The notes under the pieces were generated by a model. That model did no database searches. It was not told where the DNA came from and was given only the letters and a program-made list of their open reading frames with translations. Made by a program: the position numbers and the translations under genes. A stretch of DNA of 51,664 bases, the filler included, from Jimgerdemannia flammicorona (lineage: Eukaryota), in assembly GCA_003990765.1 (NCBI GenBank). It is 2 parts of 2 records of this genome, joined end to end, with 100 filler letters (N's around TTAATTAATTAA, not from the genome) between each part and the next. Parts side by side here need not be neighbours in the genome. Positions count along the whole stretch, not along the records: positions 1 to 25,789 come from RBNJ01000796.1; 1 more part is not named here. One strand, 5' to 3'. Positions 2,245-30,375 of the stretch are shown one piece after another; positions within the stretch are counted from its first letter, which is position 1, and the number at the start of each line of letters is the position of its first letter.

Positions 2245-3671
2245 TGTAACAAACCAAAACATACTATCCAAATTATAACTTAGCCAGATGATGTAAACAA
2301 TTAATATACTTAACCAGATAACATGGGCTCCCAGTATGACATGACTTCTAGTATATCATAGTTACTCATACTTATCATACTTATAATTAGCCAGATATAC
2401 CAGAAAGGGTCTGTTTACCTATACAGACTCTATATACCATACAGACTCTGTATACCTGCCATAAGTAGCAGTTCTATAGTTAGCCACATAGTAACCAGAT
2501 AGCAACCAACTTATATAAATTACTCCAGAGACAAGAGTAAATAAACCTCAGTCTAAATTGAAGTACAAACCAAAAAAGCCTCTAAAGATTGAGTATTGGT
2601 CCCCTTATTTCCACTCCAGTCTACTTTCTGATATAAAGCTTAAAGATTTTGCTGTCAAGTTTGAGTGAAGAACTTTGCTGCTTTTGGAATTATTGATATG
2701 CTTGCCAGACTAAGCCTAAAGAACTCAAGTTTCTACCACCTAAGCGAAAGCTGCCTTGCTCAAGCCAGTTTCTGACACAACTTCACAGTAATCTATTCAT
2801 ATAAATGAAGCCAGTCTTTGATGCAACTTTGCCAAGAGACCCTTTCCAAGAAGCTGCCAGTACATTTCCCAGTTGAAGCTACCAATTTAGGAAGAATCTG
2901 TACTATCATATTCCTAGAAGAGCCCACTGATTCAGGAAGAATCTGTACTATCTGAGTAGTATTCTCAGTTGAAGCCACCAATTTAGAAAAATCCCCACTG
3001 CCTGAGTTATTTTCCAGAGAGCTACTGATTTAGAAAAAATCTGCATTATCCACTATTTTCAAGTCATTTGCATTCCCAGAAGACCCACACCACCTAAGTA
3101 TTATTCTTAGAAAAGCCCAAGTTATCTATGATATCTAAGTTATTTATTTGTTTCCAGTGAGTCTGATATAGAAGAATCCATACTATCCTCTATTCCCAGT
3201 GAGCCAGATTGAGTTATCTACTAGAAATTGCATACTTTTGGAAATTAACATGCTACATGAAGATCATCATATAGAGATCATCACCTAAGAAGGAAAACAG
3301 CTAAATTACCAGACTGTCATACATAAGGAACCCATCATGCTACATAAGATCATTACCCAGAAATCACATAAGAAACCTACTATACCATACAGAGATCATC
3401 ATACTATACATGAAATTCTACTGGTTCCCAGTTGACCCAAGAAGGAAATCCATTTATACAAATTATTGCTATACCCAGAGAACTGTCTCAATAAGGAAAT
3501 CACCAGAATTGCTTACAGATATCTAGCTTTGACTATTATATCACTAAATACTAAGGATCTCAGAAATCTTAGAACATTTTATTGCTTTTTGACAAAGTAA
3601 CTAGGAGCTCAAGCCAAACCACATCAATCTCCAATCTTATAATTTGCCTCCATTGAGCCAGGCATGTTATA
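2245..3671 (+). repeat. 5' LTR of element A
   Basis: Starts TGTAAC and ends TGTTATA (TGTTACA with C>T). Colinear with 13301-15120. Contains TATAAA followed closely by AATAAA (about 2514-2545) and imperfect internal tandem repeats (about 2870-3200). Confidence 0.95.
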
Positions 3672-3673
3672 TT

Positions 3674-3690
3674 TGGAGGCTCAACTGGGA
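3674..3690 (+). promoter_or_regulatory. Primer-binding site of element A (TGGAGGCTCAACTGGGA; possibly tRNA-Gln-like)
   Basis: TGG begins 2 nt after the LTR end. TGGAGG is complementary to a tRNA ending CCT-CCA. The tRNA identity is inferred only. Confidence 0.6.
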
Positions 3691-6600
3691 AGATTTTAAA
3701 ATTGATATGACTTTTCAGCTCACAAGAACCCACAGTCAAACTGGATACATTTGATACAACACCAATCTCTGCTACTATAGGAGAACTAGTTATTACTAGC
3801 ATCTGGACAGAAAGAGAAGTAATCACATCAAGACTTGCCAACTACCTAGTATCAGAAGGATCTCAACCAGAACCAGAAGGCAGTACAGTCTGAAATCTCC
3901 AACAAGACTAACCAGATAACATAGGTGGCCCTGCTGGAGATTTTGAAGAACTTGCATAAGAACTAGAAGATCTTATTACACAAGCCCAAGATTTTACAGC
4001 CAGATACCCTATACCAGTCCCATCAATTTCACCAATAGAACCTTTACTACAACTCCTTGCAGAATTAGAAGTAGCTCCTACAAGAATACCTAGACTCATT
4101 CTACTTTGTCCAAGATCCAGAACACTATCCTCAGGATAAGCACCCCTATCTCTAGTAATAGCTCAGAAAGTAAATTAGAATCAGAATCTAAACCAGACCC
4201 AAAATCAGAAGAAAGTGACAATAAAATGGCCACCTCATTGCCAACCTTTACAGGATTCCCAGAGAAAGACCCCAGAGAATTCCTTGACAGAATTAAAGAA
4301 ATTACAGTCCTGAGGAATCTCTCAGATGAAAAAAAAAATCACCATCTACAAGGCTCAGCTTAGAGAATCAGCCAGAGGAATTTTCTACTAAACAGCAGAT
4401 AACTCTAATTCAGAATTAGTAAGACAGATATAAGTAGCAATGTCTTATAAGCTAGAATATGTGGCCATGGTCCACTGGCTCATTGAAAAGTATGCAGGAA
4501 ATGAAACCCACTACAAGGCTCAGAAATCCATCATGGGGATGAAGATGAATCTTAAAGAATTACCCAGAGCCTTCTTCATAAGAATTCAGAAGAGAATGCA
4601 TGCTACTGGGTTCAATGCCACCAACCAGGACATCATAGGGCCAATGATCTTCATGAATGGAATTCCTCTGAACATCACCTAGTATGTCTGCACCCTAGGC
4701 ATCAGAAGGTCTGAGGAGTAAGTAGATACAGCCCAGGGATTCTTTGATGTCAGACAAGGAACCACCTGGAGTAATCATGATAAGAAAGAAGATAAAGAAG
4801 ACATCCTGGTCAAAGCTCTACAAGGACTCCTTCAAGGATAAGAAAGATCTGAAGAAAGAAGGTCAGCCAAGGAAGAAAAGAAGAACAGAAGTGAAATCCA
4901 AGACCTTAGCTCCAAGTTGGACTGATTGGTTGGACAGATTGAAAAACTCACTACATGCAAAAATCAGAGTTACCAAGACAATAGAGGATACCCACCATAG
5001 AGGAGCCAAGGTTATCCACCCAGAGATAACAGAAGTTATCAGAAAAAAGAAAGAAGATATCCTGTCTGAGACAGAGCTTAAGTCCAATACTTCCACTGTA
5101 GATAATTCAGATACTATGCCACTGAATGTGATAACAAAAGTGACTGAAGAGACTCAGAACTACCAAACTGAAGGAATGACACTCAGTACAAGAAGACTGA
5201 AGCCCATCCTATTGAAGATTTCAAGAAAGCAAGCAATAGTGAAGACTACAGTGACCTAGATCTGTACCCTACCAAGGTTACCATCTGAAAAACAGTCTAC
5301 TCAGCAGAGAAGAGAAAGAGATCTGTAAGAAGGCCATCCAGGAACATCAGCAGAAGAATCATCCAAGAAGAAGATGAAGAACATAAAGAGGAGTAGATAG
5401 AAATACCTCTCTGAACCCCCTCACCTTTTGTCTCTGAGACAAATGAGTTGCCACCAGAAGATGAAGAAATGGAATAAGAAGAACAGAAACCTGCTGCTCC
5501 AAAGTCCAAGAAGAAGTACACCCCAAAGACCATGCCTAGAGATATCTACAATGAAGCCTGGCAGAAGATTCAAGAGGTTAAGATAGAAGTCCCTCTCCTG
5601 CAGTTTCTGTAACTAACACCAGCTAGAGTCTGAAACAAATTGCTGAGAACCACCAGGTCTAGCACTGGCCAAGTTCCTATCCCACAGTAAGAACTAGCTT
5701 TTATTTCTATTCAGGCTATGGAAAGACATATCAGTACCTACTTATGTAGAGATATTGGAGAACAAAAAGCAAAAATCCTTATAGACACAGAAGCAGCTAT
5801 CTGTATCATTTCCAAACAATTCCTGAACACCCGCCAATGGCCCATTGATGGACCATCTAACCTCAGCATTATAGTAGCAGATGGAGTCTGAACTCAACCC
5901 CTTGGAGAAGTATGAAATATCACTATCTCTCTTGGACATATTCAGTTCTCTATCCCAAAAGCTATTGTTACTGAAGCTGTCATCTATGACATGATTCTTG
6001 ACACCAACTGGATGAAGGAAATGAATGCAGTTGTTGATATTGGTCAACAAGTACTCAAGTTTGACTACCGAGGTAAGAAGTATAGAGTTAAGGTGACCAG
6101 CTATGAGCAATCAAAAAAGAAGAAGAAGGTCACTATTCAGGAGGAATATGCTAGTAGTAAAGAATCTACCACAGAAGAAGAGGAAGAATCTGAAGATGGA
6201 AATGATCCCAGACTCAATCTCTGAATTAATCTGATGGATGACAGACCAGAAGACAATGTGTGGGCCAAGAACACTATCTCTATCACTATTGGAGCCATTG
6301 CAGGAGAAATCAAAGGATGCCCTGCTTGCCTCAAGAGATACAAGTGTCCTGAGCATTCCTCTAAGATCATGGAAACAAGAAAATCACCTGGCACAGTCTG
6401 CCCAGAGTGTAGAAAGAAGAAGAAGAAATACAGACATGTTCCAGAAATACCTGCAACTGAAGCTGCAGAAGTATAAGCAATTTGGAGTCAAGAATCATCT
6501 GAGGAAGAAGAAACTTCTGACCAAGAAGTTCCTGAACAAGAAGTAACTGAAGAAGAGGTCCCTGAACTCATTCCCTGGGATGATCCTCACTGGACACCAC

Positions 6601-7389
6601 CTGAAGACAATGACCCTTGGAATACAGAAGAAGGACCCAGTATAATCACTATTATCCCCAAGAAAGAAACTCACCAAGAAAAGACTTTTCAGCTAGAAAG
6701 ATGTCTACACCAAATGATCTTCTACTCTCCCTGAGACTACTGCTATCAGTGCTATCTACTAGACCAATAGGAGAGACAGAGACCCCAGAGAGCAGAACCC
6801 CCAAATACAATTGCACAGTCAACTACCTTCTAGGAAATTACTACTAAGTTGCAAAGCTGATTCAGAGGATAAGGCCTTTTCACCCAAACAGAAGTATACT
6901 CTCTGTCTACTCTTTCACCAACTTATGACCAAGATGGGTACTGATTCCTAAGATAACAAGAGATAAACAGTCAGAAATATCATTTTTGAGCAATGAGATA
7001 TTACAATCATGGGAGACACCCTGACTACCAAGACTGCAGACATCAGAAGATTCACCTCAGTTATGATATTGCAATCCATACTTTGAAGAGAGGAGACAAC
7101 AGAGGCCAGATCCAAAAGAGCTGGACCAAGAAGCCAGGAAGGAGAATTCTCAAGATCTATGATTTGAGAGAAGACATCCTAGCTCTCATCAGACATACAA
7201 TCCACCAAGGATGGGCAGAAGATACCACCAACTTCATGGAAGCCCTAGACCCTATAGGAAGAAGAGGAATCAACTATCTCCAAGACCCCTCTACTGGAGC
7301 CAGATGGCCACATCTCAATCTCAGAGTCTGGAGGTTCTCTGCTAGTAGAGCTTCAGCCCTAGGACAGCCCAAACTCAGCAAGAATATTG

Positions 7390-7797
7390 TCCAGTATGCC
7401 CTTCTACACCTCAAGGCCAAACTCCCAACCAAAGCTCACCCAGAAGATATAGGGTATGATCTTCACAGTCTAGAGGATGAATCTATCAAGCCTGGAAAAA
7501 CCTTCATAATCAGAACCAGATTAGCTATACAGCCACCCCAAGGAGCTTATATCCAACTGACCTCAAGGTCTGGACTTGCCAGACAAGGAATAACTGTAGA
7601 AGAAGAAACTATTGACCCAGGATATATAGGTGAAATCAAGATCATTCTACACAACAGTAGTACAGAATGGTATTGAATCATTAGAGGACAGAAGATTACC
7701 CAAGCAGTCTTCATGAAGGTCAAGACTCCACAATTACAAGAAGTCTCTGAACTAACTGAAAGAACAAGACAAGCTAAAGGATTTGGGAGCTCAGATA
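7390..7797 (+). pseudogene. dut: dUTPase domain inside pol of element A, between protease and RT
   Basis: Motifs GYDL, TSRSGLA, TIDPGYIGEI, GQKITQ and RQAKGFGSS correspond to dUTPase motifs 1-5. One in-frame stop. Confidence 0.92.
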
Positions 7798-10198
7798 AGA
7801 AGGAAGTATATCTCCTTTAAGTCAACCACCTCAAGAGGAATGTTTCCCTGCAAGTGTACTGCCAACCAGTTAAGCTGTACAAGAATCTCATCCTGGAGCC
7901 CAGAGAACAAACTACCTTTGAAATCTTTGCACCACCTGACCCCAGAAATCTTTTCTTTGAACCCAAGAAAGATATCCCACACCTGGATATAGAGGGACAT
8001 ATATTCCTTGATAAGATGAATCCAGTACACTTCTGAGCAACCAACCAAAGTTGGGAGACTATCATCTTGCTAAAAGGAACTATCATAGGACATCTGGTGC
8101 CTTTTCTCAACCTAACTCATAGGGAAGTTTATGAACTAAACCTATTGAGAAACAGCAAAAGGTCTCAGAAGAAAAGAAAGGCCCCTCTGCGACCCAGAAA
8201 ACAGTGAAGCCTTCCACCAACATTGGAGAAGAATTGACACCCCAACAACAGTAATAACTAGTAGAACTTCTCAACAAATATCAAGATATCTTCACTACTG
8301 ATTATGACAACCTGCTATACAACTCATCTATCATCACAGCATAAATACAGGAAATGCAACACCCATCTGGCAGAAACTCTATAGAATACCCCATCACTTG
8401 AAAAATATTTGAAAAGAAGCACATTTAAGAACTCTTAAACAATAGAGTCATCTGACCCTCTATCAGCCCCTGGGCCAGTCTTATACTTATTGTACCAAAG
8501 AAAGAAGGATGGAGACTCTGTGTGGATTACAGAAAACTCAATTCAGTCATCAAAAAGGATACCTATCCTTTGCCCAGAATCAATGACCTTTTGGATCAGT
8601 TACAAGATACCAGATACTTCAGTAGTATGGACCTCTTTGCAGGATTCCATGAGACCCCCATGGACTCCAAAGATATTCAAAAAACAGCCTTCCTTACTCT
8701 AGGAAAATTGTTGAATACCTTTGAATACTCTTTGGACTTTGCAATACACCCCCCATCTTTCAGAGGATGATGAATTCAGTCTATGCCCCCTTGATCCACC
8801 ACTGCCTGATTGTATATATGGATGATTAAAACATCTATTCAGCAAATTTTGAAGAATACCTGCAACACCTAGAGGAATTCTTCAAGCTCACCCACAAGAA
8901 CTACTTGAGATTGAATGTAAAGAAATACTACTTTGGGAAACAGAAACTTGAATTCCTTAGATTCATAGTTTTGAAAGAAGGAACCCATACAGACCCAAAG
9001 AAAACTGAGAAGATCAACAATTGGCCAGTACTCAAGACTTTAAAGAAAACACTATCATTCCTGATACTAGTATTCTACTATAGAAGATTTATCAAGAACT
9101 TTGCCCAAATTACCACCCCAATCCAAATCCTTCTCAAGAAAGAAGTACCATTCAAATAGACAGAATTACAAGAAAAAGCCTTTAAGAACTCAAGAACCAC
9201 ATGACTACAGTACCAATCCTTGTGCATCCCAATCTACAGAAGCCATTCATCTTGTATACAGATGCCTCCAAAGATGGCCTAGGAGCAGTTCTAGTCCAAG
9301 AAGGACCTGATCAACAATACTATATGATAGCTTATGCAAGCCAAGCTACCAATCAGCAGCAGATGAATTATGGTAGCATCAAACTGGAATGTCTTGCAGT
9401 CATATGGGTAGTCACTCTGTTCAAGCATTACCTTATTGAAAAAAGGTTCACCCTGATTACAGACTATACAGCTCTCAAATAGCTATTCAACTGCAAGGAA
9501 TCCACCAGAATCCTAGTCTGCTGGATCATTATCCTTCAGGATTACAAAATCACCATCATCCACAAAGCAGAGAAAGCTCACAACAATATTGATGTACTTT
9601 CCCACTAGCCCCAATGAATCAGAAGAAGAGTGTCCCAAGGAACTGTACCCTAAAGGAAGCTCCTCAGACCATCAAGGCACAAGAAGATCTCATCTGAAAA
9701 GAACATCAAAAAGCCCACCAAGGACAAGTGAATATAGAAGAAAAGCTGTGAACAACATACCAACATTGGCCCAACCTCAGAACACAAGTCTGGAACATAC
9801 TCAAGAAATGCAACACCTGCCAGAAGTACTAAGGAAAGAAGAACTATCAAGCACCATTGCAACCAATTATACCTCTAGACAACATCTTTCAGAAATGGGG
9901 AATAGACATAATAGGACCTCTACCAGTTACACCAAGAAGAAACAAATACATCCTTGTACTTATAGAACATCTGACCAAGTGGCCTAAGGCTTTCTCAATA
10001 GAAATCACAGATGTCTTAACCATTGTAGGCCTTCTCCATAGACTCACACTCAGATATGGACCTCCAGAAGAACTTATCTCTGACTGAGGCACTGTAAGCG
10101 CACAACCTCCAAGCCACCGAGATCACACGTCACCCTCTGAACAAGCCACTGAAATCACACACGACCTCTGAACAAATCTGGAAATCACCTGCCTGATT

Positions 10199-10311
10199 AC
10201 AAAGCTGAGTCAAACCGAAGTCACAGTGCACAAAGCTGAGTCAATACGAAGTCACAGAACACAAGATTTACACAAACAGAATCTTACCAATCAGGACCAA
10301 ATGCATATATA
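10199..10311 (+). promoter_or_regulatory. Putative internal promoter for the U3 ORF
   Basis: Direct repeat ACAAAGCTGAGTCAA-x-CGAAGTCACAG occurs twice, each copy with TGAGTCA (AP-1/Gcn4 consensus; 10206-10212 and 10237-10243). CCAAT at 10287 and TATATA at 10306, 75 bp before the ATG. Confidence 0.5.
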
Positions 10312-10380
10312 CCGAGCACCGAGACACGTCAAAACAGAGAACCAAAACAAACAACAACCACAACTTCCAACACATACAAC

Positions 10381-11484
10381 ATGACCACTGAGATCTACAA
10401 CCGCATCCACGCTGACATTTGGAATGCCATTGTCAACCGAGCCACACCCCCTCTGCCCCTCATGAATATCCATAGTCTAGCACCCCTCTACTTCGTAGAA
10501 GCCCGATGGAATGCCCTGAACATGCTTAACGAGGCCCACCGAATCAGACAAATCTCAAGCTACTACCAGATCGGCCGCCTCTTGGAAGACATGGTCGAAC
10601 ACCACCATGACACAGACATTACCCAGATGTCTCAACACCAGAAACTCATTGCCCGCAAACACCGAGAACTCTTTTATGAGTACAGCACCTTTATTCCCTG
10701 CCTCCGAGTCACTACCAGCGAAATGGTTGCTACCCTGTCCTATGGCCAAATCGATGACATGATACAAGAACTCAACCACAAGTACCTCGAGTATGTCCAG
10801 ACCACAGACAGAACCTTCCCGCACCCCAATGACCATATCCTGCAAATGCCCCAAGTTGGATACGCCATGAAGGATGTCTACGATATAATCCACTTTGATG
10901 AAGACGAAGCAGAAGACAATGACCCCTCTGATGCCGACATGACCTCAAGCCAAGGATCCCTGCTAACCCTGATCACGCCGCCAATGTTGCCAATGAACTT
11001 ACAACAGTTCATAACTGCATACAAGACTTATTGGGACAATGACCATTGGCACGAATACCAACCCGCGTTCACCCCCGATTACTTCAATTACAATGAAGAG
11101 ACCGGAGAACACAATCTGTACCTCCAGACAACCCTCGAGATCGAACCAACAACTCCACTACCTGAGTACGAGCGATATGAACCACAGCCACCAGCTTACT
11201 ACAACCCCGCGACTCATAGTGCTGTAACCTATAGAAGGTACGCAGACAGCGAATCTGATGAAAGCAAAAACAATACACCCATGCTTCACCCACCAACACC
11301 TTATCCAGCATATGAGACAGACGATGCTATTCTGTGGGATGGAGACGAAGTTCCAATGTATTACTACCTCAGTGAACAAGGAGAAGTAATCCGCGAACCA
11401 CTCTTCCTAGATGACTACTTCATCAGAGATGATGCAATCGATGGTGATGTCATCGAAGACTACCCAGATAGTGCCAAACCATAA
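10381..11484 (+). CDS. Uncharacterised 367-aa protein encoded in the U3 region of the solo LTR (helical N-terminal domain, acidic Pro/Tyr-rich C-terminal region)
   Basis: Uninterrupted ORF in a region otherwise full of stops. A-rich leader, TATATA at 10306 upstream, AATAAA at 11791 downstream. Motif similarity to ORF3 of element A. Confidence 0.85.
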   Translation: MTTEIYNRIHADIWNAIVNRATPPLPLMNIHSLAPLYFVEARWNALNMLNEAHRIRQISSYYQIGRLLEDMVEHHHDTDITQMSQHQKLIARKHRELFYEYSTFIPCLRVTTSEMVATLSYGQIDDMIQELNHKYLEYVQTTDRTFPHPNDHILQMPQVGYAMKDVYDIIHFDEDEAEDNDPSDADMTSSQGSLLTLITPPMLPMNLQQFITAYKTYWDNDHWHEYQPAFTPDYFNYNEETGEHNLYLQTTLEIEPTTPLPEYERYEPQPPAYYNPATHSAVTYRRYADSESDESKNNTPMLHPPTPYPAYETDDAILWDGDEVPMYYYLSEQGEVIREPLFLDDYFIRDDAIDGDVIEDYPDSAKP

Positions 11485-11665
11485 ATAGCCTAGCAGTCAT
11501 AGTATAGTTAGATTAGCCTTGTACGACGTGACTGTGAACTGACTCAGCAGTCAGGCGATCTCTTGACATGTCAGATCACTATTGTACTACGTGACTGCAT
11601 TCCAACTCAGCAAGGCACTAAGTGCTACATCCATATCTAGCATAGTCCAGATAGCCCCTCACTAG

Positions 11666-11796
11666 TATAAATACCCCCTCCCCCAGACCTCAGAATCTCA
11701 GACCTGAACAATCCGAACACAACTCCTGAGCACTTCCCCACAATACCCCTTCACACAACTACTCCTAGTATAGCAATATCATAAATAGCGAATAAA
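11666..11796 (+). promoter_or_regulatory. Canonical LTR TATA box and polyadenylation signal of the B-family LTR
   Basis: TATAAATA at 11666-11673 and AATAAA at 11791-11796, both conserved in the reverse-strand copy (about 27850-27995). Confidence 0.6.
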
Positions 11797-12745
11797 CCTA
11801 TTTCATAACCCACAAACCACTCTTAAGTAAAATCCGCTCCCTGTTAGGTCCTACTCCTAACCCCATCACGAAATTTCCTAATTGGGTATTGTCTGCAGCG
11901 ATACGCCAATTCAACTAAGCTGGTCTTAGTTTCTCGAACTTCCTGAAATATGGAAAATCCTGAACATCCAGAACTAGTCCGAAAAAGGACTTTGGTTGAG
12001 ACGTCAACCCAATCTTGAAATCAATAAGCATAGAGGACGTACTCCATACGAAATTGATCTTGACCATAAGAAAACAGTCTTCCAGAATATCCAGAACTTC
12101 CAGAAAACCCTTCCAGAACTACGTAATGGTTACTCTAAAAAGCAACCCCCTTACAGGCACAGAATTCATCAATAACATAATTACAAGTTATGTACAAATT
12201 CACAAGATCTACCTCAAATAGACCATATTATATCATCTTCAGACCAATGGCATGACAGAAAGAATGAATCAGACCATCAAGAAAGAACTTGCCCAAGTCA
12301 ATTCTACCAATTGGGATCTCTGCTTACCCAAGATCCTATAGGAAATTCAGAACACCCCTGTTACCTCCACTAAACAGAAGCTATTCAAAATGATGTTTGC
12401 CAAGAAAACCAGAACTACTGACCATGAGAATCTCAGAGATCTCCTCAAGAAGGCAGAACAGTTACATAATTAAGCCCAAGGTCAGATTATCAAAGCCCAA
12501 GAAAGACAAAAGAAGTACTATAACTAGAAACAGAAGGATCAGGAGATCAAGATTGGAGATCAAGTATTAGTTTGGAGAAGTATGATTAAAATGAATTTTG
12601 TCACCAAATTGGAGCCCAAATAAGAAGGACCTTATATTGTATATAATATTAAAGGAACTAGCATCTATTTAAGAAACATGAATGGATGAATCCTGAGAAC
12701 ATTAGTACATATCAATCATCTCAAACTATATCTTCTCTCTACACT

Positions 12746-13261
12746 ATGAGTCAAAGGATTGATCAGTATCTACAGACATTAGTCCTCAGCTCCTTCTAGA
12801 CCCTACTAGTTCCTCTACCCCAATTTGGCCAAGCTAATGGAAACCCCCTTCAGAAGATTCAAGTTTACTAAGAAAATCTCACCCTGGCCAGATGCCTACT
12901 ACAAGTCCATCAACTACAGGCCTATTATGCAATTGGTGAATAATTGTAGAACCTTTCAGCCCCAGAGCAGACCTATATCAGGAATACCACAGGTCTGACC
13001 AGAAGAGATACTACTGCTGCAGACAGACTATACACCATTTACAAATAAAATATCATAGCTCTGATACAGGCACAGTTCTCTCTAAATGATATTCAAGGAA
13101 TAAACCCTATTACCTATTTGAGCATTATCAATTCTGTCGAAATTCTATTTCCTGAAAAAGAAGAAGAGCCCATAGAATGGAGTGACCCTAATATAGACAA
13201 TAAAGATGATAGAACAGGTATAGATGTAGAAGAAGCTTATGCTTATTGGGATGATGACTGA
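12746..13261 (+). pseudogene. ORF3 of element A (172 codons), homologous to the U3 ORF
   Basis: Single frame MSQRIDQYLQ...PLP...HQLQAYYAIGE*L...AADRLYTIYK...EEAYAYWDDD*. Internal stops are only TAA/TAG (consistent with C>T or G>A). The ATG overlaps the integrase TGA (ATGA at 12746-12749). Confidence 0.8.
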
Positions 13262-13300
13262 AGAACAGTCTGAGACAGACTATTCTTCAGTGAGGGCTAA

Positions 13301-15120
13301 TGTAACAAACCAAAACATACCACCCAAATTATAACTTAGCCAGATGATGCAAACAATTAGCATACTTAACTAGATAATGTGGGCTCCCAGCATGATATGA
13401 CTTTCAGTATATCATAGTTACTCATGCCCACCACACTTATAATTAGCCAGATATACCAGAAAGAGTCTGTTTATCCATACAGACTCTGTACACCATACAG
13501 ACTCTGTACACTATACAGGTCCTGTATACCATATAGACTCTATATATCTGTCATAAGTAGCAGATCTATAGTTAGCCACATAGTAACCAGATAGCAACCA
13601 ACTTGTATAAATTACTCCAGAGATAAGAGTGAATAAACCTCAGTCTGAATTGAAGTGCAAACCCAAAAAGCCTCTAAAGATTGAGCATTAGTCTCTTTAT
13701 TCTCACTCCAGTCTACTTTTTAATACAAAGCTTGAAGATTTTACTACTAAGTTCAAGTGAAGAACTTTACTGTCTTTGGAATTATTAGTATGCTTGCCAG
13801 ACTAAGCCTGAAGAATCCAAGTTTCTGTCACTTAAGAGAAAGCTACCTTGCTTAAGCCAGTTTCTGATGTAACTTCACAGTGATCTATTTGCACAAATGA
13901 AGCCAGTCTTTAATGCAACTTTGCCAAGAGATCCTTTCTAAGAAGCCACCAATATGTTTCTCAGTTGAAGCTGCTGATTCAGGAAGAATCTATGCTATCA
14001 TATTCCCAGAAGAGCCCACTGATTCAGGAAGTATCCATACCATCTGAGTAGTATTTCTTGTTGAAGCTACCAATTTAGGAGAATTCGTGCCACCTGAGTT
14101 ATTTCCCAGAGAGCCACTAATTTAGAAAGAATCCACATCATCTGCCATTTTTAAGTCATCTATATTCCCAGAAGACCCATGCTACCTGAGTATTATTCCC
14201 AGAAAAGCCCAAGTTATCTGTAATATCTGAGTTATTCATTTGTTTCCAGTGAGCCCAATATAGAAGAATCCATGCTATCCTCTATTCTCAGTGAGCCAGA
14301 TCAAGTTATCTACCAGAAATTGTATACTTTTGGAAATTGACACAAGGCCTATCTAATGATACTAAGAACATTGAAATCGGATCATGCGTTGCTGAGCTAT
14401 GAAGGAAAATGTCTGAATTGCCGATTTTGGAAATTCTTTGATTTGCTGATTTTGGAAATTTCGTCAAATGGAACGTTTTCCTTAATATCTCGGCAACACG
14501 TAATCCGATTTTAATGTTCTTGGTATCATTAGAAAGGCCTTATTAAGGGCTTTCAAATGACACCAAGATCATCAAATTTGGATGATTATTCATCAAGTTA
14601 TTGATGTAAACATTTAATTGTCTAATTTGGAAATCAAAACAATGGTTGATTCGAATCCGATTCGAATCCATCCGGATTGACTCGTTTGGAGCACTACACT
14701 ATACAAAGATCATTACATAGAGATTGATATCACCCAAGAAGGAAAACCACTAAATTGCCAGACTGTCATACATAAGGAACCTATTGCACTACACAAGATT
14801 GTCACCCAGAAATTACATAAGGAACTCACCACACCACACAGAGATCATCATACTACATATGAAATTCTACTAGTTCCTAGTTGACCCAAGAAGGAAACTC
14901 ATTTATACAAATTGCTACTACATCCAGAGAACTGTCCCAATAAGGAAATCACTAGAATCACTTGCAGATATCTAGCTTTGACTATTATACCACTAAATAC
15001 CAAGGATCTCAGAAATCTTAAAATATTTTATTGCTTTTTGACAAAGTAACTGAGGGCTCAAGCCAAACCACATCAATCCCCAACCTTGTAATTTGCCTCC
15101 ATTGAGCCAGACATATTATA
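13301..15120 (+). repeat. 3' LTR of element A, with an extra insert of about 353 bp
   Basis: TGTAAC start, colinear with the 5' LTR except 14344-14696, preceded by a hairpin and a purine-rich tract. Confidence 0.95.
14344..14696. mobile_element. Palindromic DNA-transposon fragment inserted in the 3' LTR
   Basis: Absent from the 5' LTR. Long imperfect inverted repeat at 14344-14541. The right end reads TAGTGCTCCAAACGAG on the minus strand with GATTCGAATC subterminal repeats (hAT-like). CpG-rich. Confidence 0.65.
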
Positions 15121-15879
15121 ATATTATTATTAATTCAAAATCAAATACTATAGACTATTTGACTAATAATTAATTCTACTATCTAACTAGCTATCTTTCT
15201 ATATTTCAGAATAAATACTAAGATATAAATCAGATTTCAGAATAGCTTATAAAGTGGGAAACTATAGAATAAGTACAATAAATATTCTATAAGTACTGAG
15301 GATATAGAAATAAGATAGATAGAAAAATAAACTATAAAAATAAATATATAAGTAAACAAAGAGGAAAATTAATACTAAATTAGATCTAATTATATCTTTA
15401 ATTATCTTTACTACTAGAAATAGACACTAGGAGTATAGGAGTATATTCTTGAGGTTTTTAAAATAGAGACAAGACTAGCTAAGTGATCTATAGATAATAC
15501 TCTAGCCAATCATCTTCTGTAATAAGTTCTAATCTAAGAGAGATCTGAAAATAGATAGATAACTAATAGATCCTAGATCAGAGACTAGAAATATCTTCTT
15601 TTTGTTCAGATTTATAATAATTCTTAGAGATTCTAGAATAAAAAATTTCTCAGTAGCTTCTTCTAGAAAAAAGTCTCTTTTTTAATACTAGAGACTCAGA
15701 TACTTATTAATTAGATTCTCAGATATATAATATATATATTAGTTAGTATAATTGACTAAATAGTATATAGCTCAGATAACTTCTTAGGATACTTTTATTA
15801 TATATATATAATAGTCTCTTAAAGATTCTTATAATATTTATAAAGTGGTCTTATTAATTATCTTAAAGAGAGAGAATGA

Positions 15880-19833: not shown

Positions 19834-20036
19834 ACTTAGACTTTGCCATTTATTACCAGTCTATATATAAATTTACATTATCTTCTCCCACTACCCAATT
19901 CCTATAAAGAAACCTCTCCTCTTCCATCTCTTTATACTTAAAAATCACCCTGTCTCCCATAACCCCAACTCTTCCCCCACTCTGCCTGTATATCTTCTCC
20001 ACTAAATAACACTGCTGACCACACACATCTTTCACT
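19801..20036 (-). mobile_element. 5'-truncated LINE 3' fragment with poly(A) tail
   Basis: Poly(T) at 19801-19827 on the plus strand. The minus strand reads ...RNWVVGEDNV...AATAAA-tggcaa-AGTCtaagtAATT-ATA-(A)n, like the end of the large LINE. Confidence 0.75.
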
Positions 20037-20107
20037 GGTAACATTCGGGTGACACAAGACTCAGGCAATACTTTTTACTACGTTTTCAGTATCAAGCAAC
20101 TATTAAC

Positions 20108-22030
20108 ATGGATAGCAATAATCGAATTGGTGAGCATACTGGCCAGGGGGGTGCTGGCACCTTTGACTGGCAGCAGGTGGGGAGGAGGGGAGATAGTTTG
20201 GAGATGCCGGGGGCCTTGATGGCTAGCTGAGGTCCTGGTGGTGGAGGGAGGGGTGGGCTGAGGCAGAGAGGTGGGGAGAGGTTGACCTTCGCTGATAAGG
20301 TCAGAATGGAGAAGATGGTCTCAGGCCTTGACAATTGGCTGGGCCTGGGGAAGGCGTCGACAGCTGCTGCTGGGGGACAGAGAGGTATACCCAGGGGAGT
20401 CTCAGGTGGCAGGGGAGGAGCAGGAGTAGAGGCTGGAGATAGAGATGTGACTGTTGATGGAGCTGTGACTAGGGATCTGGCAAAAAATCCAGATATGATG
20501 GCGGTCAGTAATTCAGGACTGGGAGTGGGCATGAGGCCCAGGGACCTAGCAGATGGCATGATAGGCATGGTGTTGACCCCATTACTCAAGAAGTCGAGGT
20601 TGGAATTCGTGGTCACTATGTGTTTCCGGGGTTTGGTGGTGATGGCGAGGATGATTTTGGGGCTAGTGGCGCAGGAGGCTAAGGGAGCAGTATCGGTGAA
20701 GTTTTTGAGGGGAAAGGAAGGGGTTGAGGTGGGGTTTGAGGAGGAAGATGTCTTGTTGGCGGCCATGGAGAAAGGAGTGACAGTTAGTGGGGTTGTGGTC
20801 CCTATGGCTCAGTGCATGTGCTGGGACCCCTGAGTGATACAGTTGATGGTATTGGATCTCTCTACTGTGTCGAAGGAGAGGACCAGGGAGTTGGTTGTGG
20901 AGGCGATCAAGGAGTATGGAGAGATTGTGGATATTGGGTTCAAGGTCTGGGAGGGTACAGAGCTTAGGACTGGTGACATTGATATCAGAGTGAGGCTGGC
21001 TGGGAAGGAGAATATGGAGAAGTCGAGGGACTGGTCAGCGACGCTGAGGTGGGGACCAGTGGAGTGCAAGGTCACAAGGGTGAAGGGGACCCAGGAGGAG
21101 GAGGAGGACCTGTTGGAGGCTCTGGAGGATCTGGAAGGGGTGGTTGCAAGGAGGAGATCGGCCTGGAAGGAGTTTGAGGCCAGGATGGTGGTGGGGGAGG
21201 TGGATGTAAAGAGGATCTGGATAGAGAAGAGGGCTTGGGAGAAGATGCAGGGGAGGAAGATCCAGAAGGAGTTGCTGGTGAGGTTGGGTGGGGGTAGGGC
21301 CAGTGGAAGCTCCAGGGAGGGAGTTGCAGGGTTGTAGGAGAGTGCCTGGGCTGAGGGGGGAGAAATGGCCCAGGGTGGGGCTCAGATTGGAGTGGAGGAG
21401 GAGAGGGGAGGCGAGTTGGAGGCAGATGCCGAAATGGGTGAGGATGTGCGCCCTCAGTATAGTGTCCCAGGTAGAGCTGAGGGGGAGGAGGAGCTGCTGG
21501 ATGTGCTGGATGAGGAGTGGGATGAGTCAGTGAGGAGGAGTGCATTGATGGACCCCGAGGTAGATGGGGGACAAATCACTCAGGGTGTGGTGGAGGTAGT
21601 GGATGAGGAGAAGTGGATGTGGAAGACTCTGGAAGGGGTAGCAGCTGAAGAGCTGGGGGGTGAGGATTTCAGGGTGATGGAAGAGAGGCATTGGGAGGAG
21701 ATCCTACAGAGAGAGGAGGTGCCGAGAAAGATGAGGAATGAGATCCTGGCTGTTCTCCTGGAATCAGTTGAATATCAAGTTGATGATCAGCAGGAGGAGG
21801 AGCTTTAGAAGATTGCAAGTGATAGGGCACTTTTCTTGTAGAACTTGAGGAAGGGACTGGAGAAGTGGCATGCAGTCTACTTGGACTACCGGTCAGATAT
21901 GGAGGTAGTGGACAGGGTGGAATGTCAGGAAATCTTGAAGGCACTGGATGCTCAGGCTAATGTGGAGGGTGACTTGGAAGCTGAATAGCACTTGGACCTG
22001 GCTGGAGATGAGATGAGCATGGATTACTAG
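20108..22030 (+). pseudogene. LINE ORF1 (RRM-like region, acidic/coiled-coil C-terminus)
   Basis: The ATG at 20108 reads through fragments 20282-20833, 20834-21337 and 21365-21808 with CGA>TGA and CAG>TAG type stops and a frameshift near 21340-21365. EAIKEYGEIVDI...RTGD resembles the Tx1 ORF1 RRM. Confidence 0.7.
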
Positions 22031-22061
22031 GCTGGGGTCACTCTTACAACATTTTTTCAAT

Positions 22062-25000
22062 ATGAACAGTACAACTAGGATATTCTCATTAAACATTAAT
22101 GGGTTATGGGGGGTGGCTAGGAGGAAGTATATATTTGGATGGCTTAAGGGACTGGATGTGGACCTCTTCTTATTGCAGGATGTTCATTATGAGGCAGATG
22201 TGGACTTACAGGATTAGACTAAGGAATGGGGGGGCATGGCTATATGGAGGGGGAAAGTATGTATTCTCATTTGGAAAGGGATGGGGGACATTGAGGACAT
22301 TGGACATTGGGGGTCTCGGGTGGTGTGGGGAATGTGGACGAGGCCTGGATGGGGCTCATTGACAGTTGGGTCTTGTTACTGCCCAGTGGAGAGAGGGGTG
22401 AGGGTGGATTTAATTCACAGATTGAAAGAGGCTGGTGTATTGGGAGAAGATGGGTTGGACTATATGGGGGGTGACTTCAACATGATACAGGATAAGGAGA
22501 AGGATAGAACAGATGGCAGGAGAGATATGTGGGGTGAAAGTGGTGAGTTGGATGACTGGTTGGAGACAGAGAGGTTGTGTTCTTTGGTGGACTCAGGAAG
22601 ACATTTTTGGGCAGATCAGCAGGTGTACACCCACTGGGTGGTGGGGCTGGACTCCAGGATTGACTGGGTTCTGACAGCAGAATGTTGGGGAGCAGATGTC
22701 TGGTCGGTACTGGAAGTAGTATGGTGTCCATGGTCTGATCACTGGGGGCTGCTTGGAGGGGGGAGGTTTGGGGGAAATGAGGATGGGCCTGGACATTGGT
22801 GGCTAAATTCTTCCTTGTTGGAGGATAGGGTATTGTGGGAGGGTTGTGAAATAGAGGTGGTTGGTAACATCAGTAGGTGGTAGGAACAAGGCCTGGGGAT
22901 TGTGGACTGCTGGAGAAGACTGAAGGTGAATGCTCAGGGGTATTGGAGGGAAGCAGGGAAAGAAAAGTGTGCCCAGCAAAGATGGAGGGTGCTATGGGCC
23001 TCGCAGCATCTGGCAGCACTTATGGAGAGATAGACAGATGTACTGGAGGATGGGGACATGACAGACTGGCATATTGTGAGAATCCGGCAGGAGGTTGAGG
23101 AGTTTAAAGGAGTGTTACGAAGAGAGGAGGAGGTGAAGTTGCAGGGAATGGTGGCCCACCTGCAGTGGCAGGGGCTTGAGGAGGGGGAGAGGCCTACTAG
23201 GTTTTTGTCACAGTTGTTACAGGCATGACAAACAAAGCAGTAGTGGGAGGGAGTTCTGGACGTGAATGGCAAGCTGGTGGTGAGGTCTCTGGCAATTCTG
23301 GGTCTATTGAGAACCTGGTGGGAGAATCTATAGAGTGAGGAGGAAGGAGGAATGGACACTATGGACATTGAAAGGCAGCTAGGGGATTGGCACCCAGACC
23401 CTGTGATGGGACAGGGATCCAGTGAGTGGAGAGGAAATTGGCAGAGTTGTGGCCTTGACGAGTAAGGGGACAGCCCTGGGAGAGGATGGACTTCCCTGGG
23501 ATTTTTGGCAGAAGATGGCTGGGGTGGGCATGGTGCTAGAGGAAATGACTGCTATGTATGATGGAGTTCTTCAGTCTGGTGCCTGGATTGGGGGACAGCA
23601 CTTAGGGCTAGTCTCCTTGCTCTACAAGAATAAGGGGAGGCGAGAGGACTGGAAGAACTGGTGGCCAATTATGCTTCTCAACATAGACCGCAAACTGGTA
23701 ACAAAGGTCTTGGTAATGAGGCTGCAAGGAATCGGTCAGCAGGTGCTTGGTGTGGAGCAGCATGGGTTTGTTGGTGGTTAGTTGATTCAAGATGGGACAG
23801 CTTGGGTTCATGGAGTGATTGAAGGTGCTTAGGTGACAGGGGTGGATGGCAGATTGGTATTTCTGGACCAGGAGAAGGCTTATGATAGAGTGTGGAGGAT
23901 ATGGCTGGAGGGGGTGCTGAAACGGATTGGTATCCCCCCAGAGTTCTGAGGATCATTGATCAGCCTCTTGGAGGACAGTCAGGCAGTATTGGTCATTAAT
24001 GGCCATAGAGGGGTGACCTTTCCCCTGGGATGTGGGGTACCATAAGGTGACCCCTTGTCACCCATATTGTATGCTCTTTCCCTGGAGCCTCTACTGGACA
24101 GAATTTGGCATCGAATTGGGGGTTTGGATATTTTAGGGATTAATTGGAAGGTGGGGGCCTTTGCTGATGATATGGTGGTCAGGCTGGGCTCCTTGGTAGA
24201 TGTGGGGGAGTTGCAGAGGTCTGTGGAATGGTATGAGAGGGGTTCTGGTACTAAACTGAACTGGCACAAATACGAGACTCTGGTGCTGGGTGCTGGAATT
24301 GTTGGTGGTGATGTCATTGGGACAGTGGTACCAGCTGGTGAACCAGTGCACTATTTGGGGATCTACTTCTTGGTGTTCAGATCTCTTCTTCCCCAGGCAT
24401 GGTGGAACCGTAAACTTCTAGAGTGGGGAAATGTTCTGCTGCAATGGGGAGGCCAGCATATATCCCTAGCTGGAAGGGTGATGGTGCTGAATGTGTATTG
24501 GATGCCGAAGCTGTAATATGTGGGGTATCATTTGGATTTCCTACCCTGGGTGGTCAAGGGGCTGTTGAAGATAGTGAGGTCATGGATCTGAGGAGGGCGG
24601 TGAAGCCAGGTTGATTGGGAGGTGCTCACACTGCTCTTAGAAAGAGGTGGGCTGGACTTAGTGGACTTTACTAAGCAGCTTCTATGTCTGAGAGCCTGGT
24701 GGTTGCATAGGGCGAGTGAGCTTCAGGGATGAGAGTGGGTACCACTCATGCAGAGGTTGTGGGAGGTTTGGTACTCCCCATGTGGTGACACAGGTGACCT
24801 ACTCATGATGGTGGCCATGGAGGGGAGTAAGAGAATGTGGTTTACAGGCTTCTGGTGGGGGGTGGTGGATGGCGCTAAGAAGATTGGACTTTGGTGGCGA
24901 AGTGATGAAGCTGAGGAGGATTGGGGACCTTGGATGTGGCAGTGGGACAGGCTGCTACTGGGGGGTGTTCCGGTGGAGAGCTTTCAGCTTGGTGAGGGTC

Positions 25001-25725
25001 TGGAGTGCCTGCAAGGTCTAGGTAGAGACCTATGGCCAGAAGCCTGACAGAGGGTTGGAATTGGTGAGGAGTGGGATTGGAATAGACTATGGCTTTGGAG
25101 CAAAAGGGTAAGGCAGTGGCTGCCCCCCAAGTTCTGGGTGATATGGTGGCATGTCCTCCAGTGGAATATGATGTTGAACTATCAGTCTGGGCACTTGGTG
25201 GCCGGTGGAGTATTCAAGTGCAAGGATTGTTTCAATGTTGGTCAGGAGGGAGGAGTGGTACAAATGCCTGAACATTGGCTTGGTGAGTGTGAGGTTTTGG
25301 AGGAGTTTTAGAGATATATTATGAACTGGGTAGGGCTCAGTGCCTTGGAGGGGGAGGGAGGGGGGAGATGGGGAGAGCTCTGCCAGTGATTGGTAGGTAG
25401 AGTTGGGGACGAATGGCTGACCCTTGGTTGGACTTTGGCCATGTAGGTTGGGTTGGCTGGGCATTGGGTTCATGTCTTTGAGGAAGGGCATTGGGTAGGG
25501 GTTGGGGACAAGGTGGCACGTTGGGAATGGTTGCTTTTGGATGTTTTGAATAGCTGGTGGCAAGGTTGGGGGATGGGTGGGGGGAATTGCAGGGGTTTGG
25601 TGCAGTGTATCTCCCAGAAAAGTGGTGGGAGGATTCGGGTAGTGGGTAATTGGGTGGTGCTTGGGCAGGGGGAGGTCGAGGAGGGAGGATTGGGCCCACA
25701 GGGCATTGGTTGAGGGTGGGAGTGA
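22062..25725 (+). pseudogene. LINE ORF2 (APE endonuclease, reverse transcriptase, zinc knuckle)
   Basis: SLNING, LLQD, YCP, GGDFN, RIDW, SDH (APE); GEDGLP, PIMLLNID, QHGF, LDQEKAYDRV, GVP*GDPLSP, FADD (RT); CKDC...EHWLGEC. Confidence 0.93.
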
Positions 25726-25789
25726 CATTGTATTGTTAGAACTATAGACTTCAGTAATAAAGGGCAGTCTAAGAGACTATAAAAAAAAA

Positions 25790-25889
25790 NNNNNNNNNNN
25801 NNNNNNNNNNNNNNNNNNNNNNNNNNNNNNNNNTTAATTAATTAANNNNNNNNNNNNNNNNNNNNNNNNNNNNNNNNNNNNNNNNNNNN
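25790..25889. other. Artificial contig spacer (44 N + TTAATTAATTAA + 44 N)
   Basis: Exactly 100 bp, symmetric, with a six-frame stop linker. Both flanks end in homopolymers. Confidence 0.97.
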
Positions 25890-27079
25890 TTTTTTTTTTT
25901 TTTTTTTTAATGGACTCAATGTCCTGCAGATTTTTATTGGGAGGGAACCTAGACTATATAGGCCAAAACCCTCCCTCACCACACATCAAGCACTGCCTTC
26001 CCAGTAACTTAGGCTAACTATTACCCAGCAGTTCAACCATACTAGTGCAGCAGGGCCTATGGCAGCCTGTATCTCATTCTGTGCACCATGCTCTCCCTAC
26101 CACTAGGGAAAATCCAGCCATACACCAACAACTAAAAGCACATGCTCAAGAACCCAATGTATGTATGTACAAGGCCACACCTAAGCTGAATAGAATAGCC
26201 TCTGCCATCTCAAAGAGAATGACAGGTAAAGAAAAAACCCTCATCAAAGCACAACATAGTGAGTAGGGCCTGGTTCTCCCAGTTGAGGTGAGTAAAGAAC
26301 TTACATATAAGGTGGGAGGAGACCCCCAATACTTCACTACTCAAGCCTGTAGGTCTCAATCATATTGCTATATCAGCTTCCAGTTCTAGTTGAGTACAGT
26401 TAAGACACCTGAAACGGATAGCCTCAGGCCCCCTGACTCCCCCTGATGACCGAGGCCCAACCCACTGAATCACCAAAAGAAGCCAAGAGTGACACCTACC
26501 ACCTAACTATACTGAACTAATCAAAAGGTCCCACTGAAGTAGTATCTGCCTCAGCCCTGATGACCGCCCCTAGCCTGACACCCTACTGGTTCACCATTAA
26601 TGCCCTTTCTCCTATCTGTGACAACCATCTCTCCTCCCATCCTGACAACATCTAAAAAGCAGTTATCTATGCCAGAACTGTGTTCACCAGGAAGCTCGCT
26701 AAAGCCAGAGGGCCCCACTACAGGTACTGAGAACTTGCAGGTAACCTACACTAAACACTTGATACCCAAGGTTGGCCAACTCCCTATGTAGCCTGAGATA
26801 TACTGAGACAACACCTTGTTAGTGATGGCAAAAAGAAAAAGATGTTGCACTAAAATAAATATACTCCAGATGCAGCCAAAGGCACCAAAATCTACAAAAA
26901 AGTGGAGAAGACACCAATCTGACACTGATAAAGGGGCAACTCATCACCATTACCTCTCTCTCACTGCCCTGCAATAGGTACAGCAAACCAACCCAAGATA
27001 GAGAGGATAATAATTGGGGAAAGTGGACTCAGAAGATTGCCTATCAAACCATTATGACTAGTAAGGTAGCAAAGAAAGG
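25890..27079 (-). mobile_element. About 1.2-kb non-autonomous retroposon, copy 1 (poly(A) tail)
   Basis: Colinear with 46675-47890. The minus strand ends AATAAA...GGACattgaGTCC-att-(A)n. No recognisable RT coding. Confidence 0.8.
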
Positions 27080-27495: not shown

Positions 27496-28999
27496 TATAA
27501 GAGGGTTGCTTTTTAGAGTAACTATTACGTAGTTCTGAAAGGGTTTTCTGGAAGTTCTGGATATTCTGGAAGACCATTTTCTTAGGGTCAAGATCAATTT
27601 CATATAGAGTATATTCTCTATGCTTATTGATTTCAAGATCGGGTTGACATCTTAACCAAAGTCCTTGTTCAGACTAGTTCTGGATGTTCAGGATTTTTCA
27701 TATTTCAGAAAGTTTAAGAAACTAAGACCAGCTTAGTTGAATTGGCATATTGCTGCAGACAATACTCAATTAGGAAATTTCGTGACAGGGTTAGGAGTGG
27801 GACCTAATGGGGAGCAGATTTACTTAAGAGTGGTTTATGGGTTATTAAATAGGTTTATTTGCTATTCATGATATTGCTATATTAAGAGTAGTTGTGTGAA
27901 GGGATATTGTGGAGAATTGCTCAGGAGTTGTGTTCAGATTGTTCAAGTATTCAAGTCTGAGATTCTGAGGTCTGGGGGAGGGGATATTTATACTAGTGAG
28001 GGGCTATCTGGACTATACTGAATATGGATGTAGCACTAAGTACCTTGCTGAGTCAGAATGCAGTCACATAGTACAAGAGAGATCTAACATATATATCAAG
28101 AGATCGTCTGACTACTGAGTCAGTTCACAGTCATATCATACAAGGCTAATCTAACTATACTATGACTGCTAGGCTATTTATAAGTTTAGATGCTGTCTGG
28201 TTAGTCTTTGATGACATCACTATTGATGACATCATCACTGGCAAAGTCTGAACAGTTTTCTAACTTCTGATATTATCAGTTTCAAGATGTCGTCACTTCT
28301 ATCTCTTGCAAGATTAAGACTGTCTTTGGTGGCAGTAGTTGTACAAGGATAACAGGTCTTGGTTCTCTTTTTTTTTGGTCTACTGGCGCATTTGCAAGGA
28401 CTGGCCATTCTCGTCTAGGACAAGGGCTCCCAATGTCGCAGCTGGGGGTTCAAACCTCTTGAAAATGATATTTTCTGTAATCCGAGGCAATTTCTAGTAA
28501 TAATATCTGTCATGTGAATGGCTTGAGATTGGTTTTGACATTGTCAGCTTTCTTGAGTTCAGATGAAGCATCTGTCACTCTCCAACAGAGGCAATACAGA
28601 TAGAGCAAATGGAGTTGTTCAAATGTATTTTGCTTCTACTAAGTAATGAGGTCTTGTATAGTCACAGTATATCTTGGTCTTGAGTTGATAAGTATAGTTT
28701 GTAAACCTTTTGGTAGATGAGATAGGGTTCTTCTTATCTCAATTTGAGTTTGGTACTTTGGTTTCCTTTTGTAATAGTATGGTACACCAAACTAGTTATA
28801 GCAGTTCAGAGTCAGTCTTATGGTTATAGTACTTCTTCTAGTATTCTTGTATCTTGGCAGTGAGTTCTCATGCTTGCTGGCATATTTTGTGTAACCAGAT
28901 GATCTCTTCAGTAACTTGTTTTGTAGTCTCACATGTGGTTTCCAAATTAGTTCTGAGGATACCATGTGATTTTGGTGGCTTGGAGGTTGTGTGCTTACA
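27496..28999 (-). repeat. 3' LTR of element B (1504 bp, mosaic U3)
   Basis: TGTAAG...CTTATA termini. 27496-28236 matches 11428-12155 and about 28930-28999 matches the start of the solo LTR. The middle differs. Confidence 0.9.
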
Positions 29000-29959: not shown

Positions 29960-30375
29960 TTTGATGAGCCAAATCCTTTGGATCCTTGGATTGTAGGTAG
30001 TAGTTCAGGGACTTCCTTGACTGTCAGGGTTGATTCAATTTTTTCAAATAGGATCTGGGTGATGCAGAAACCAATAGGGATCTTAAAGGGTGTCCAACTA
30101 TAGTTTTGGAAAGAATAATAATTTCACCTATGTAATCTTCATCAATAACTCCTCCTTCTACTGAGAGTTCTTTCAGTACTAGGCTGCTACGATAGCATAT
30201 TCTTCCAACATATCCTTCAGGAATTTGGATACTGATTCCTGTGTAGACTTACTTGACTTCTCGGTTGGAGACTGTAGCTTCTTCAGCTGCATACAGGTCA
30301 TATCCAGCTGCTTTTTGACTTCCTTTAGTTGGGGCCTTGGCAGTTTGTCTTAACTTGACAAAGTCCAGTATTCTG
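29960..30375 (-). pseudogene. dut: dUTPase domain of element B, between the Gag zinc knuckle and protease
   Basis: AAGYDLYA, YRSSL, GGVIDEDYIGEI, CITQ, QGSKGFGSS. One stop and one frameshift. Confidence 0.92.

Follow-up and report, generated by a model that had tools for sequence, protein, structure and literature searches.

We identified a third open reading frame (ORF3) at the 3′ end of a decayed Ty3/Gypsy retrotransposon of Jimgerdemannia flammicorona, here called element A. Our analysis suggests that this frame is a real gene and that it is homologous to a gene embedded in the U3 region of a second retrotransposon family (family B), a reading to which we assign a probability of roughly 0.6. 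ORF3 lies between pol and the 3′ long terminal repeat (LTR) of element A, whereas its candidate counterpart, a 367-codon frame (the U3 ORF), is enclosed in a solo LTR of family B inserted in the integrase region of the same element. Both lie in the window, by which we mean the whole stretch of DNA that was analysed (51,664 nucleotides, filler included).

A third reading frame at the 3′ end of element A

Element A is a Ty3/Gypsy (Metaviridae) LTR retrotransposon, as judged by its LTRs, target duplication and domain order, and its features in the window are as follows.

2241–2244 and 15121–15124: target duplication ATAT, either side of element A
2245..3676, plus strand: 5′ LTR, TGTAAC...GTTATA (from repeat pairs, ends read)
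12155..12749, plus strand: C-terminal part of the integrase in the pol frame, which resumes 3′ of the solo-LTR insertion (from translation)
12746..12749, plus strand: ATGA overlap, in which the ORF3 start and the pol stop have TG in common
12746–13261, plus strand: ORF3, 171 codons plus TGA (13259–13261), starting at the ATG at 12746–12748
12746..13150, plus strand: ORF3 N-domain, residues 1–135, predicted all-helical, pI ~9, containing five premature stops
13151..13261, plus strand: ORF3 acidic tail, residues 136–171 plus TGA, with two invariant Trp, ending YWDDD
13262..13300, plus strand: 39-nt spacer with a purine-rich tract, from the ORF3 stop to the 3′ LTR (from sequence)
13301..15120, plus strand: 3′ LTR (from repeat pairs; start set by alignment to the 5′ LTR)

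The two LTRs are 83–87% identical and have short inverted ends (TGTAAC...GTTATA/ATTATA). Along positions 3700–10086, the Pfam domains follow the order gag-asp_proteas (weak), dUTPase (E = 1.3e-24), RVT_1 (1.2e-11), RT_RNaseH (5.2e-30) and Integrase_H2C2 (9e-06). The integrase part at 12155..12749 is decayed, with five in-frame stops, and pol ends in ...LKLYLLSTL, followed by the TGA at 12747–12749. A Pfam search of the last 197 pol codons returned zero families at E ≤ 0.01; element A thus lacks a chromodomain, as an earlier, sequence-only reading of this DNA had stated, and is not classed as a chromovirus. The purine-rich tract in the spacer is a putative polypurine tract. Right behind the ORF3 stop, before this tract, there is a short inverted repeat (CAGTCTG ... 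CAGACT, 13266–13282), and the 3′ LTR has ~360 extra bp at 14343–14705 that are missing from the 5′ LTR and include an inverted repeat (14344–14541), possibly a small nested insertion.

Contigs from three of the four sequencing runs compared (X1, X2 and X5) join position 10086 straight to 12155, indicating that other A copies carry the empty site, without the solo LTR. Between positions 10000 and 13400, the window differs from related metagenome contigs overwhelmingly by transitions (in run X1, 132 C>T and 109 T>C differences, with 33 transversions in total), an excess that fits deamination-type decay of repeats.

The sequence-only reading had described a 172-codon frame after the integrase whose ATG overlaps the pol TGA; we found 171 codons plus TGA, and the overlap does read ATGA. 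The copy in the window is interrupted by five premature stops (codon 18 TAG, 42 TAA, 66 TAA, 68 TAG and 101 TAA), which in the alignment face Q, Q, Q, Q and R/W/Q, respectively, in intact relatives. At positions 12797, 12869, 12941 and 12947, the soil-metagenome contigs carry C rather than the T of the window at all the depth there, and these are, among the positions listed, the first bases of four of the five stop codons. The sense codons in relatives, along with the dominance of transitions among the differences, indicate that ORF3 in the window is a gene killed by C-to-T decay.

We found 13 relatives of ORF3, all of them unnamed predicted proteins from metagenome contigs. A word-indexed search with the X-masked ORF3 translation recovered five, with 70–78% identity. 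Searching an ORF3 profile against 1.84 billion representatives yielded six proteins at E ≤ 0.001, comprising four new relatives, one already known and one, P0014 (671 aa, E = 3.3e-4), that we rejected as a spurious repeat match; cluster members added four more relatives. Four relatives are open over their full length, namely P0004 and P0016 (both 171 aa), P0005 (172 aa) and P0018 (170 aa), and represent three lineages that are 75–79% identical to one another. The more divergent P0010, 51–60% identical over 142–144 aa, contains no stop and remains open for 144 aa despite an in-frame 5-residue deletion. Conservation along the protein is uneven: the first 70 residues are nearly invariant and the tail is variable save for its two Trp, which are invariant across the family alignment, as are the start and end. 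This unevenness argues for selection at the protein level. Scans for the DNA of other ORF3 copies in metagenome and viral contigs (A2 and A3) confirmed nothing.

These observations bear on whether ORF3 is non-functional, a chance or relic frame within the spacer between pol and the LTR. Such a frame could well be broken, as the window copy is; the 71–79% amino acid identity between copies is close to that expected from ~10% neutral DNA divergence; and the databases carry only predicted proteins, so that open copies are favoured by ascertainment. However, three lineages that are 21–25% apart have all stayed open for 170–172 codons, the distant P0010 has kept its frame across an indel, and conservation is strongly uneven, with start, end and Trp residues invariant; this explanation is very improbable. 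Rather than being absent from related copies, the frame occurs intact, at 170–172 aa, on other contigs, and these sequence comparisons give good support to ORF3 as a third ORF that truly belongs to the A family. It represents an accessory gene, specific to its lineage, at the 3′ end of a dUTPase-bearing, chromodomain-less Ty3/Gypsy family, and is dead in this copy.

Intact ORF3 proteins consist of a mildly basic N-domain of ~135 aa (pI 8.9–9.6) and a tail of 36–37 residues, of which 15–18 are acidic and none is basic, ending in YW(D/N)DD. An AlphaFold2 model of residues 1–135 is all-helical at low confidence (pLDDT 53), and the ESM Atlas's own model is likewise helical (pLDDT 0.76). The maximum Kyte–Doolittle mean over 19 residues is 0.9–1.5 in P0004, P0005 and P0018, no stretch reaching 1.6; ORF3 thus has no membrane segment, and we rejected its identification as env. 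An env-like protein is ruled out by the want of a signal peptide or membrane anchor in a protein of 171 aa that is predicted to be soluble and helical.

Searches for known families were negative. Pfam returned no family at E ≤ 1 for either ORF3 or the 367-aa U3 ORF, and the best match in a PDB profile search with ORF3 was a plant P450 at E = 0.027, which is meaningless. In the ESM Atlas, P0004 had only unnamed or unrelated neighbours (structural TM ≤ 0.37) and residues 1–152 of the U3 ORF protein (P0002) gave no usable match. With the low-confidence ORF3 model, a fold search retrieved no chain at Z ≥ 5 among 48,161, and BFVD contained no match at E ≤ 0.001.

Comparison of ORF3 with the U3 ORF of family B

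The family-B sequences that enter the comparison are the following.

10088–10092 and 12150–12154: target duplication GGCAC, flanking the solo LTR
10093..12149, plus strand: family-B solo LTR, 2057 bp, which splits the integrase of element A
10381..11484, plus strand: 367-aa ORF (P0002), intact, within U3 of the solo LTR
10381–10827, plus strand: U3 ORF residues 1–149, the portion aligning to the ORF3 N-domain

The U3 ORF starts 288 nt into the LTR and is not coupled to pol. The sequence TATAAATA at 11666–11673, 182 nt past the end of the ORF, is a candidate promoter of the family-B LTR, and transcription of the U3 ORF would be confined to the copy in the 3′ LTR, where it would form the 3′ end of genomic RNA. 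In the soil-metagenome contigs, the solo LTR has ~10 times the summed depth of the element A flanks. The only relatives of the U3 ORF that we found are P0003, which covers its C-terminal part at 66%, and P0009, which covers its N-terminal 128 aa at 95%; as they add no N-terminal diversity, the U3 ORF profile stays shallow.

A second, internally deleted B-type element occupies 27498–32628 on the minus strand and carries gag, dUTPase and a chromodomain-like end, followed by the polypurine tract. Recognized by eye, the chromodomain-like stretch runs up to the polypurine tract, which in turn is followed directly by the start of the LTR. Similarity of this 3′ LTR (27498 to ~29005) to the solo LTR begins no earlier than the last ~20 codons of the ORF, whose body is swapped for ~700 bp of unrelated closed sequence. 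U3 thus occurs both with and without the gene, and we found no intermediate between ORF3 and the U3 ORF in this LTR. Elsewhere in the window, a block at 20000–26000 (49–54% G+C), in which GC skew is extreme (+0.42 to +0.50), contains a reverse-transcriptase-like frame (24046–24516) and resembles a non-LTR element whose mutations are strongly biased by strand.

In both lineages, a dUTPase lies between protease and reverse transcriptase (7374–7799 in A and 29956–30383 in B), the two being 34% identical. This is the sole similarity between the internal parts, indicating that A and B are different lineages, as proposed in the sequence-only reading, and the 4-bp and 5-bp target duplications given there were read as ATAT (element A) and GGCAC (solo LTR). 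That reading had also placed one gene between pol and the LTR and the other inside the LTR. This placement holds, although the positions in genomic RNA are equivalent: both genes would occupy one slot, 3′ of pol and 5′ of R, and the lineages would differ in whether the polypurine tract, and hence the LTR boundary, comes after the gene (A) or before it (B).

Motifs shared by ORF3 and the U3 ORF had been aligned by eye. These motifs exist, and BLASTP returns the same region, pairing ORF3 residues 23–70 with U3 ORF residues 24–71 (12 of 48 identical, 23.5 bits) at E = 0.003 for the single pair and E = 0.23 against the whole window. By standard measures, the match is sub-threshold. The hhalign probability is 2.2% with the first alignments and 15.4% with the enlarged ORF3 alignment, below an accepted family threshold taken as, for example, above 90%. 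An ORF3 HMM scores 7.5–9.3 bits on P0002, and 11 of 3000 shuffles and 1 of 126 ORFs in the window exceed 7.5. Moreover, the ORF3 profile search of 1.84 billion representatives returned no U3-ORF-like protein.

By contrast, comparisons that take account of position along the protein set the pair apart. For 10 of the 12 ORF3 members, the best BLASTP segment pair places N terminus on N terminus in the same register (E = 0.001–0.34). An N-anchored banded profile alignment gives z = 5.2–6.0, a score reached by 0 of 2000 shuffles and by 0 of 3091 natural segments from all six frames of the window, the top three being the U3 ORF start itself; the best unrelated segment (+6288) has no BLASTP alignment to ORF3 whatsoever. 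In the profile–profile comparison, hhalign in Viterbi mode aligns residues 1–138 with 1–149 at a score of 25.0, which none of 150 column shuffles reaches (maximum 23.3); when hhalign is run globally, 2 of 150 do. A global affine alignment of the N-domains yields z = 6.2, equalled by none of 1000 shuffles and none of 1386 natural segments. With Met1 and the strongest helix masked, 3 of 1000 shuffles and 1 of 1386 natural segments reach the score, and with PLP masked as well, 17 of 1000 shuffles do so. The score thus survives masking of the best motif, indicating that the signal is spread along the domain. These values come from shallow profiles (Neff 1.2–1.5), home-made anchored tests and a pair chosen beforehand by eye.

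The alignment requires a single insertion of 9–12 residues, with 19–21% identity over the N-domains, and an additional collinear motif, Y-L-x-x-I/V-x-T-x-E/D-x-x-F-P, ends both N-domains just before the acidic part. Models of both proteins are all-helical, with pLDDT of only 53 (ORF3) and 45 (U3 ORF), and in these low-confidence models the predicted helices start at residues 2 and 34 in both proteins and then at 86 versus 85. The resemblance between acidic, Trp-containing tails that had been drawn at the ends of both proteins stands for ORF3, which ends in AYAYWDDD; LWDGDE, however, occupies residues 318–323 of the U3 ORF, 44 before its end.

ORF3 could instead be a real gene unrelated to the U3 ORF, the likeness arising from chance and from convergence between helical proteins with acidic, aromatic-rich tails. 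The sub-threshold standard tests are what such a pair would produce (hhalign 2–15%; 11 of 3000 shuffles above the HMM score), as is the missing cross-match among 1.84 billion proteins, and the pair was selected by eye from elements that share only a dUTPase at 34% identity. Against this, the two N-domains align collinearly over their whole length, starting at residue 1; the match was attained by no shuffle (0 of 1000 and 0 of 2000) and no natural segment (0 of 3091 and 0 of 1386), it persists after masking of the best motif, 10 of 12 members align in the same register, and the runner-up natural segment is not aligned by BLASTP at all. We regard unrelated origins as unlikely. The proposal of a single protein family thus holds up in the anchored and global alignments and falls short on the standard measures, and the comparison of sequences makes it likely that the ORF3 N-domain is a distant homologue of the U3 ORF N-domain, below the usual thresholds.

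Translation of ORF3

Residue 2 of ORF3 is N, T or S in all 12 sequences that carry the N terminus. Because the codons for N and T must start with A, and the S codon in the window is AGT, the fourth base of ATGA has been kept throughout; position −3 is also A. In element A, ORF3 would be translated from full-length RNA through coupled termination–reinitiation, or else from a subgenomic or spliced RNA.

A different route, which comes close to an even bet, is that ORF3 is made in the way of retroviral or errantiviral env, through a subgenomic RNA, a spliced RNA or an internal promoter, the ATGA then reflecting compact packing. Reinitiation after a very long ORF requires special cis-elements (PMC10275272), and none is visible in the window copy: the 131 nt upstream of ORF3 in this heavily mutated copy fold with z = −0.98, 34 of 200 shuffles folding as well, and TGGGA is absent within 200 nt upstream in the same copy. 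Furthermore, the U3 ORF, 288 nt inside the LTR, is uncoupled from pol, so the family-B gene, a probable homologue, needs another route. On the other hand, all 12 sequences retain A as the fourth base although residue 2 varies, and the window copy is too decayed for an absent upstream element to count. We considered and rejected a splice acceptor at the AG of ATGAG, because residue 2 varies and this AG is not conserved. A run guessed to be RNA (X19) has no cover in the bins at 12622–12849 and is uninformative on expression.

Termination–reinitiation at the conserved AUGA, from full-length RNA, is in our view possible but tentative. The overlap invoked in the sequence-only reading is present and conserved, whereas the window copy has neither an upstream structure nor an rRNA-complementary motif. 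Caliciviruses, influenza B virus and the SART1 retrotransposon use stop–start overlaps of this type to reinitiate translation downstream of long ORFs (PMC10275272), and a fungal-host precedent for coupled termination–reinitiation is the hypovirus CHV1 (PMC2699510). ORF3 resembles these systems in its AUGA/UAAUG-type overlap and in the succession of a long ORF and a 3′ ORF. It differs in that those systems need an upstream rRNA-complementary element or a nearby structure, which is not detectable in the decayed ORF3 copy. Among the literature matches listed, there was no case of termination–reinitiation in an LTR retrotransposon.

A Pol–ORF3 fusion through −1 ribosomal frameshifting is highly improbable: relative to pol, ORF3 does lie in the −1 frame, which upstream of it is open over 29 codons in the window and 41 in P0007, but no X XXY YYZ heptamer occurs in the pol frame from 12156 to 12749, gene callers chose one and the same Met as the start for 11 of 12 sequences, and the upstream in-frame ATG of the window is Thr in P0007.

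Possible function and relation to known accessory genes

The ORF3 protein could act as an adaptor, its helical domain docking on a component of the element or the host, or serving oligomerisation, and its acidic Trp tail recruiting a host factor. Tails of this kind function elsewhere as acidic activation domains, or bind host proteins through short Trp-acidic motifs. Any one version of the adaptor, such as a tail serving as a transcriptional activation domain on the LTR, is unlikely taken singly. The version that we prefer, at low confidence and by analogy, is that ORF3 may transactivate its own LTR as does foamy-virus Tas, a protein with an acidic activation region whose target is the LTR of the virus that encodes it.

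The closest parallels in layout are the accessory genes in or overlapping U3 of the 3′ LTR, namely MMTV sag, HIV/SIV nef and foamy-virus tas/bel, whose expression relies on splicing or on an internal promoter. Like the family-B ORF, these are extra ORFs located 3′ of pol/env and partly or wholly in U3, and ORF3 represents a variant of this layout placed outside the LTR. However, we found no sequence or fold similarity between sag, nef or tas and ORF3, and the present elements are fungal Ty3/Gypsy elements without env. A protein gene inside U3 (here 1.1 kb) is otherwise known from complex retroviruses, and accessory genes are rare in fungal LTR retrotransposons, none being known to have an assigned function.

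Env-like third ORFs have been described for Ty3/Gypsy elements such as Drosophila errantiviruses and plant Athila/Tat (PMC13524379, PMC4408406). ORF3 is like them in its position between pol and the 3′ LTR and unlike them in being a 171-aa protein with no hydrophobic segment that is predicted to be soluble. In bdelloid rotifers, additional ORFs captured by LTR retrotransposons are common to diverse types of retroelement (PMC5408684). Those elements share with ours the presence of one accessory ORF family in different LTR-retrotransposon lineages of one genome and differ in having an animal host and proteins unrelated to ORF3. The brtn gene is antisense, unlike ORF3 in orientation and position, and is not known to resemble it in sequence. 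It is the additional ORF of Boty/BcGypsy1 from Botrytis cinerea, which resembles element A as a fungal Ty3/Gypsy element with an extra gene (PMC8365987). For fungal Ty3/Gypsy elements, our literature search, outside subscription journals, listed no paper on a third ORF in sense orientation or on an ORF embedded in U3, brtn and the shared bdelloid ORFs coming nearest.

In its fullest form, the proposal would be that a previously undescribed protein family occurs in two unrelated lineages on opposite sides of the polypurine tract, that it encodes a transactivator or anti-silencing regulator, and that it is expressed by AUGA reinitiation after gag-pol, the first such case in an LTR retrotransposon; all of this holding together is a long shot.

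ORF3 is conserved, matches no known family and probably exists in two layouts, and its conserved AUGA is a simple candidate site at which a eukaryotic retroelement could reinitiate translation behind a very long ORF. If the homology is true, a gene has been crossed by the LTR boundary. With the gene inside U3, every LTR would bring a further copy of it and solo LTRs would retain it; if the homology is true, solo LTRs, of which the window contains one with an intact 367-codon ORF, would be possible dispersed sources of a transposon protein.
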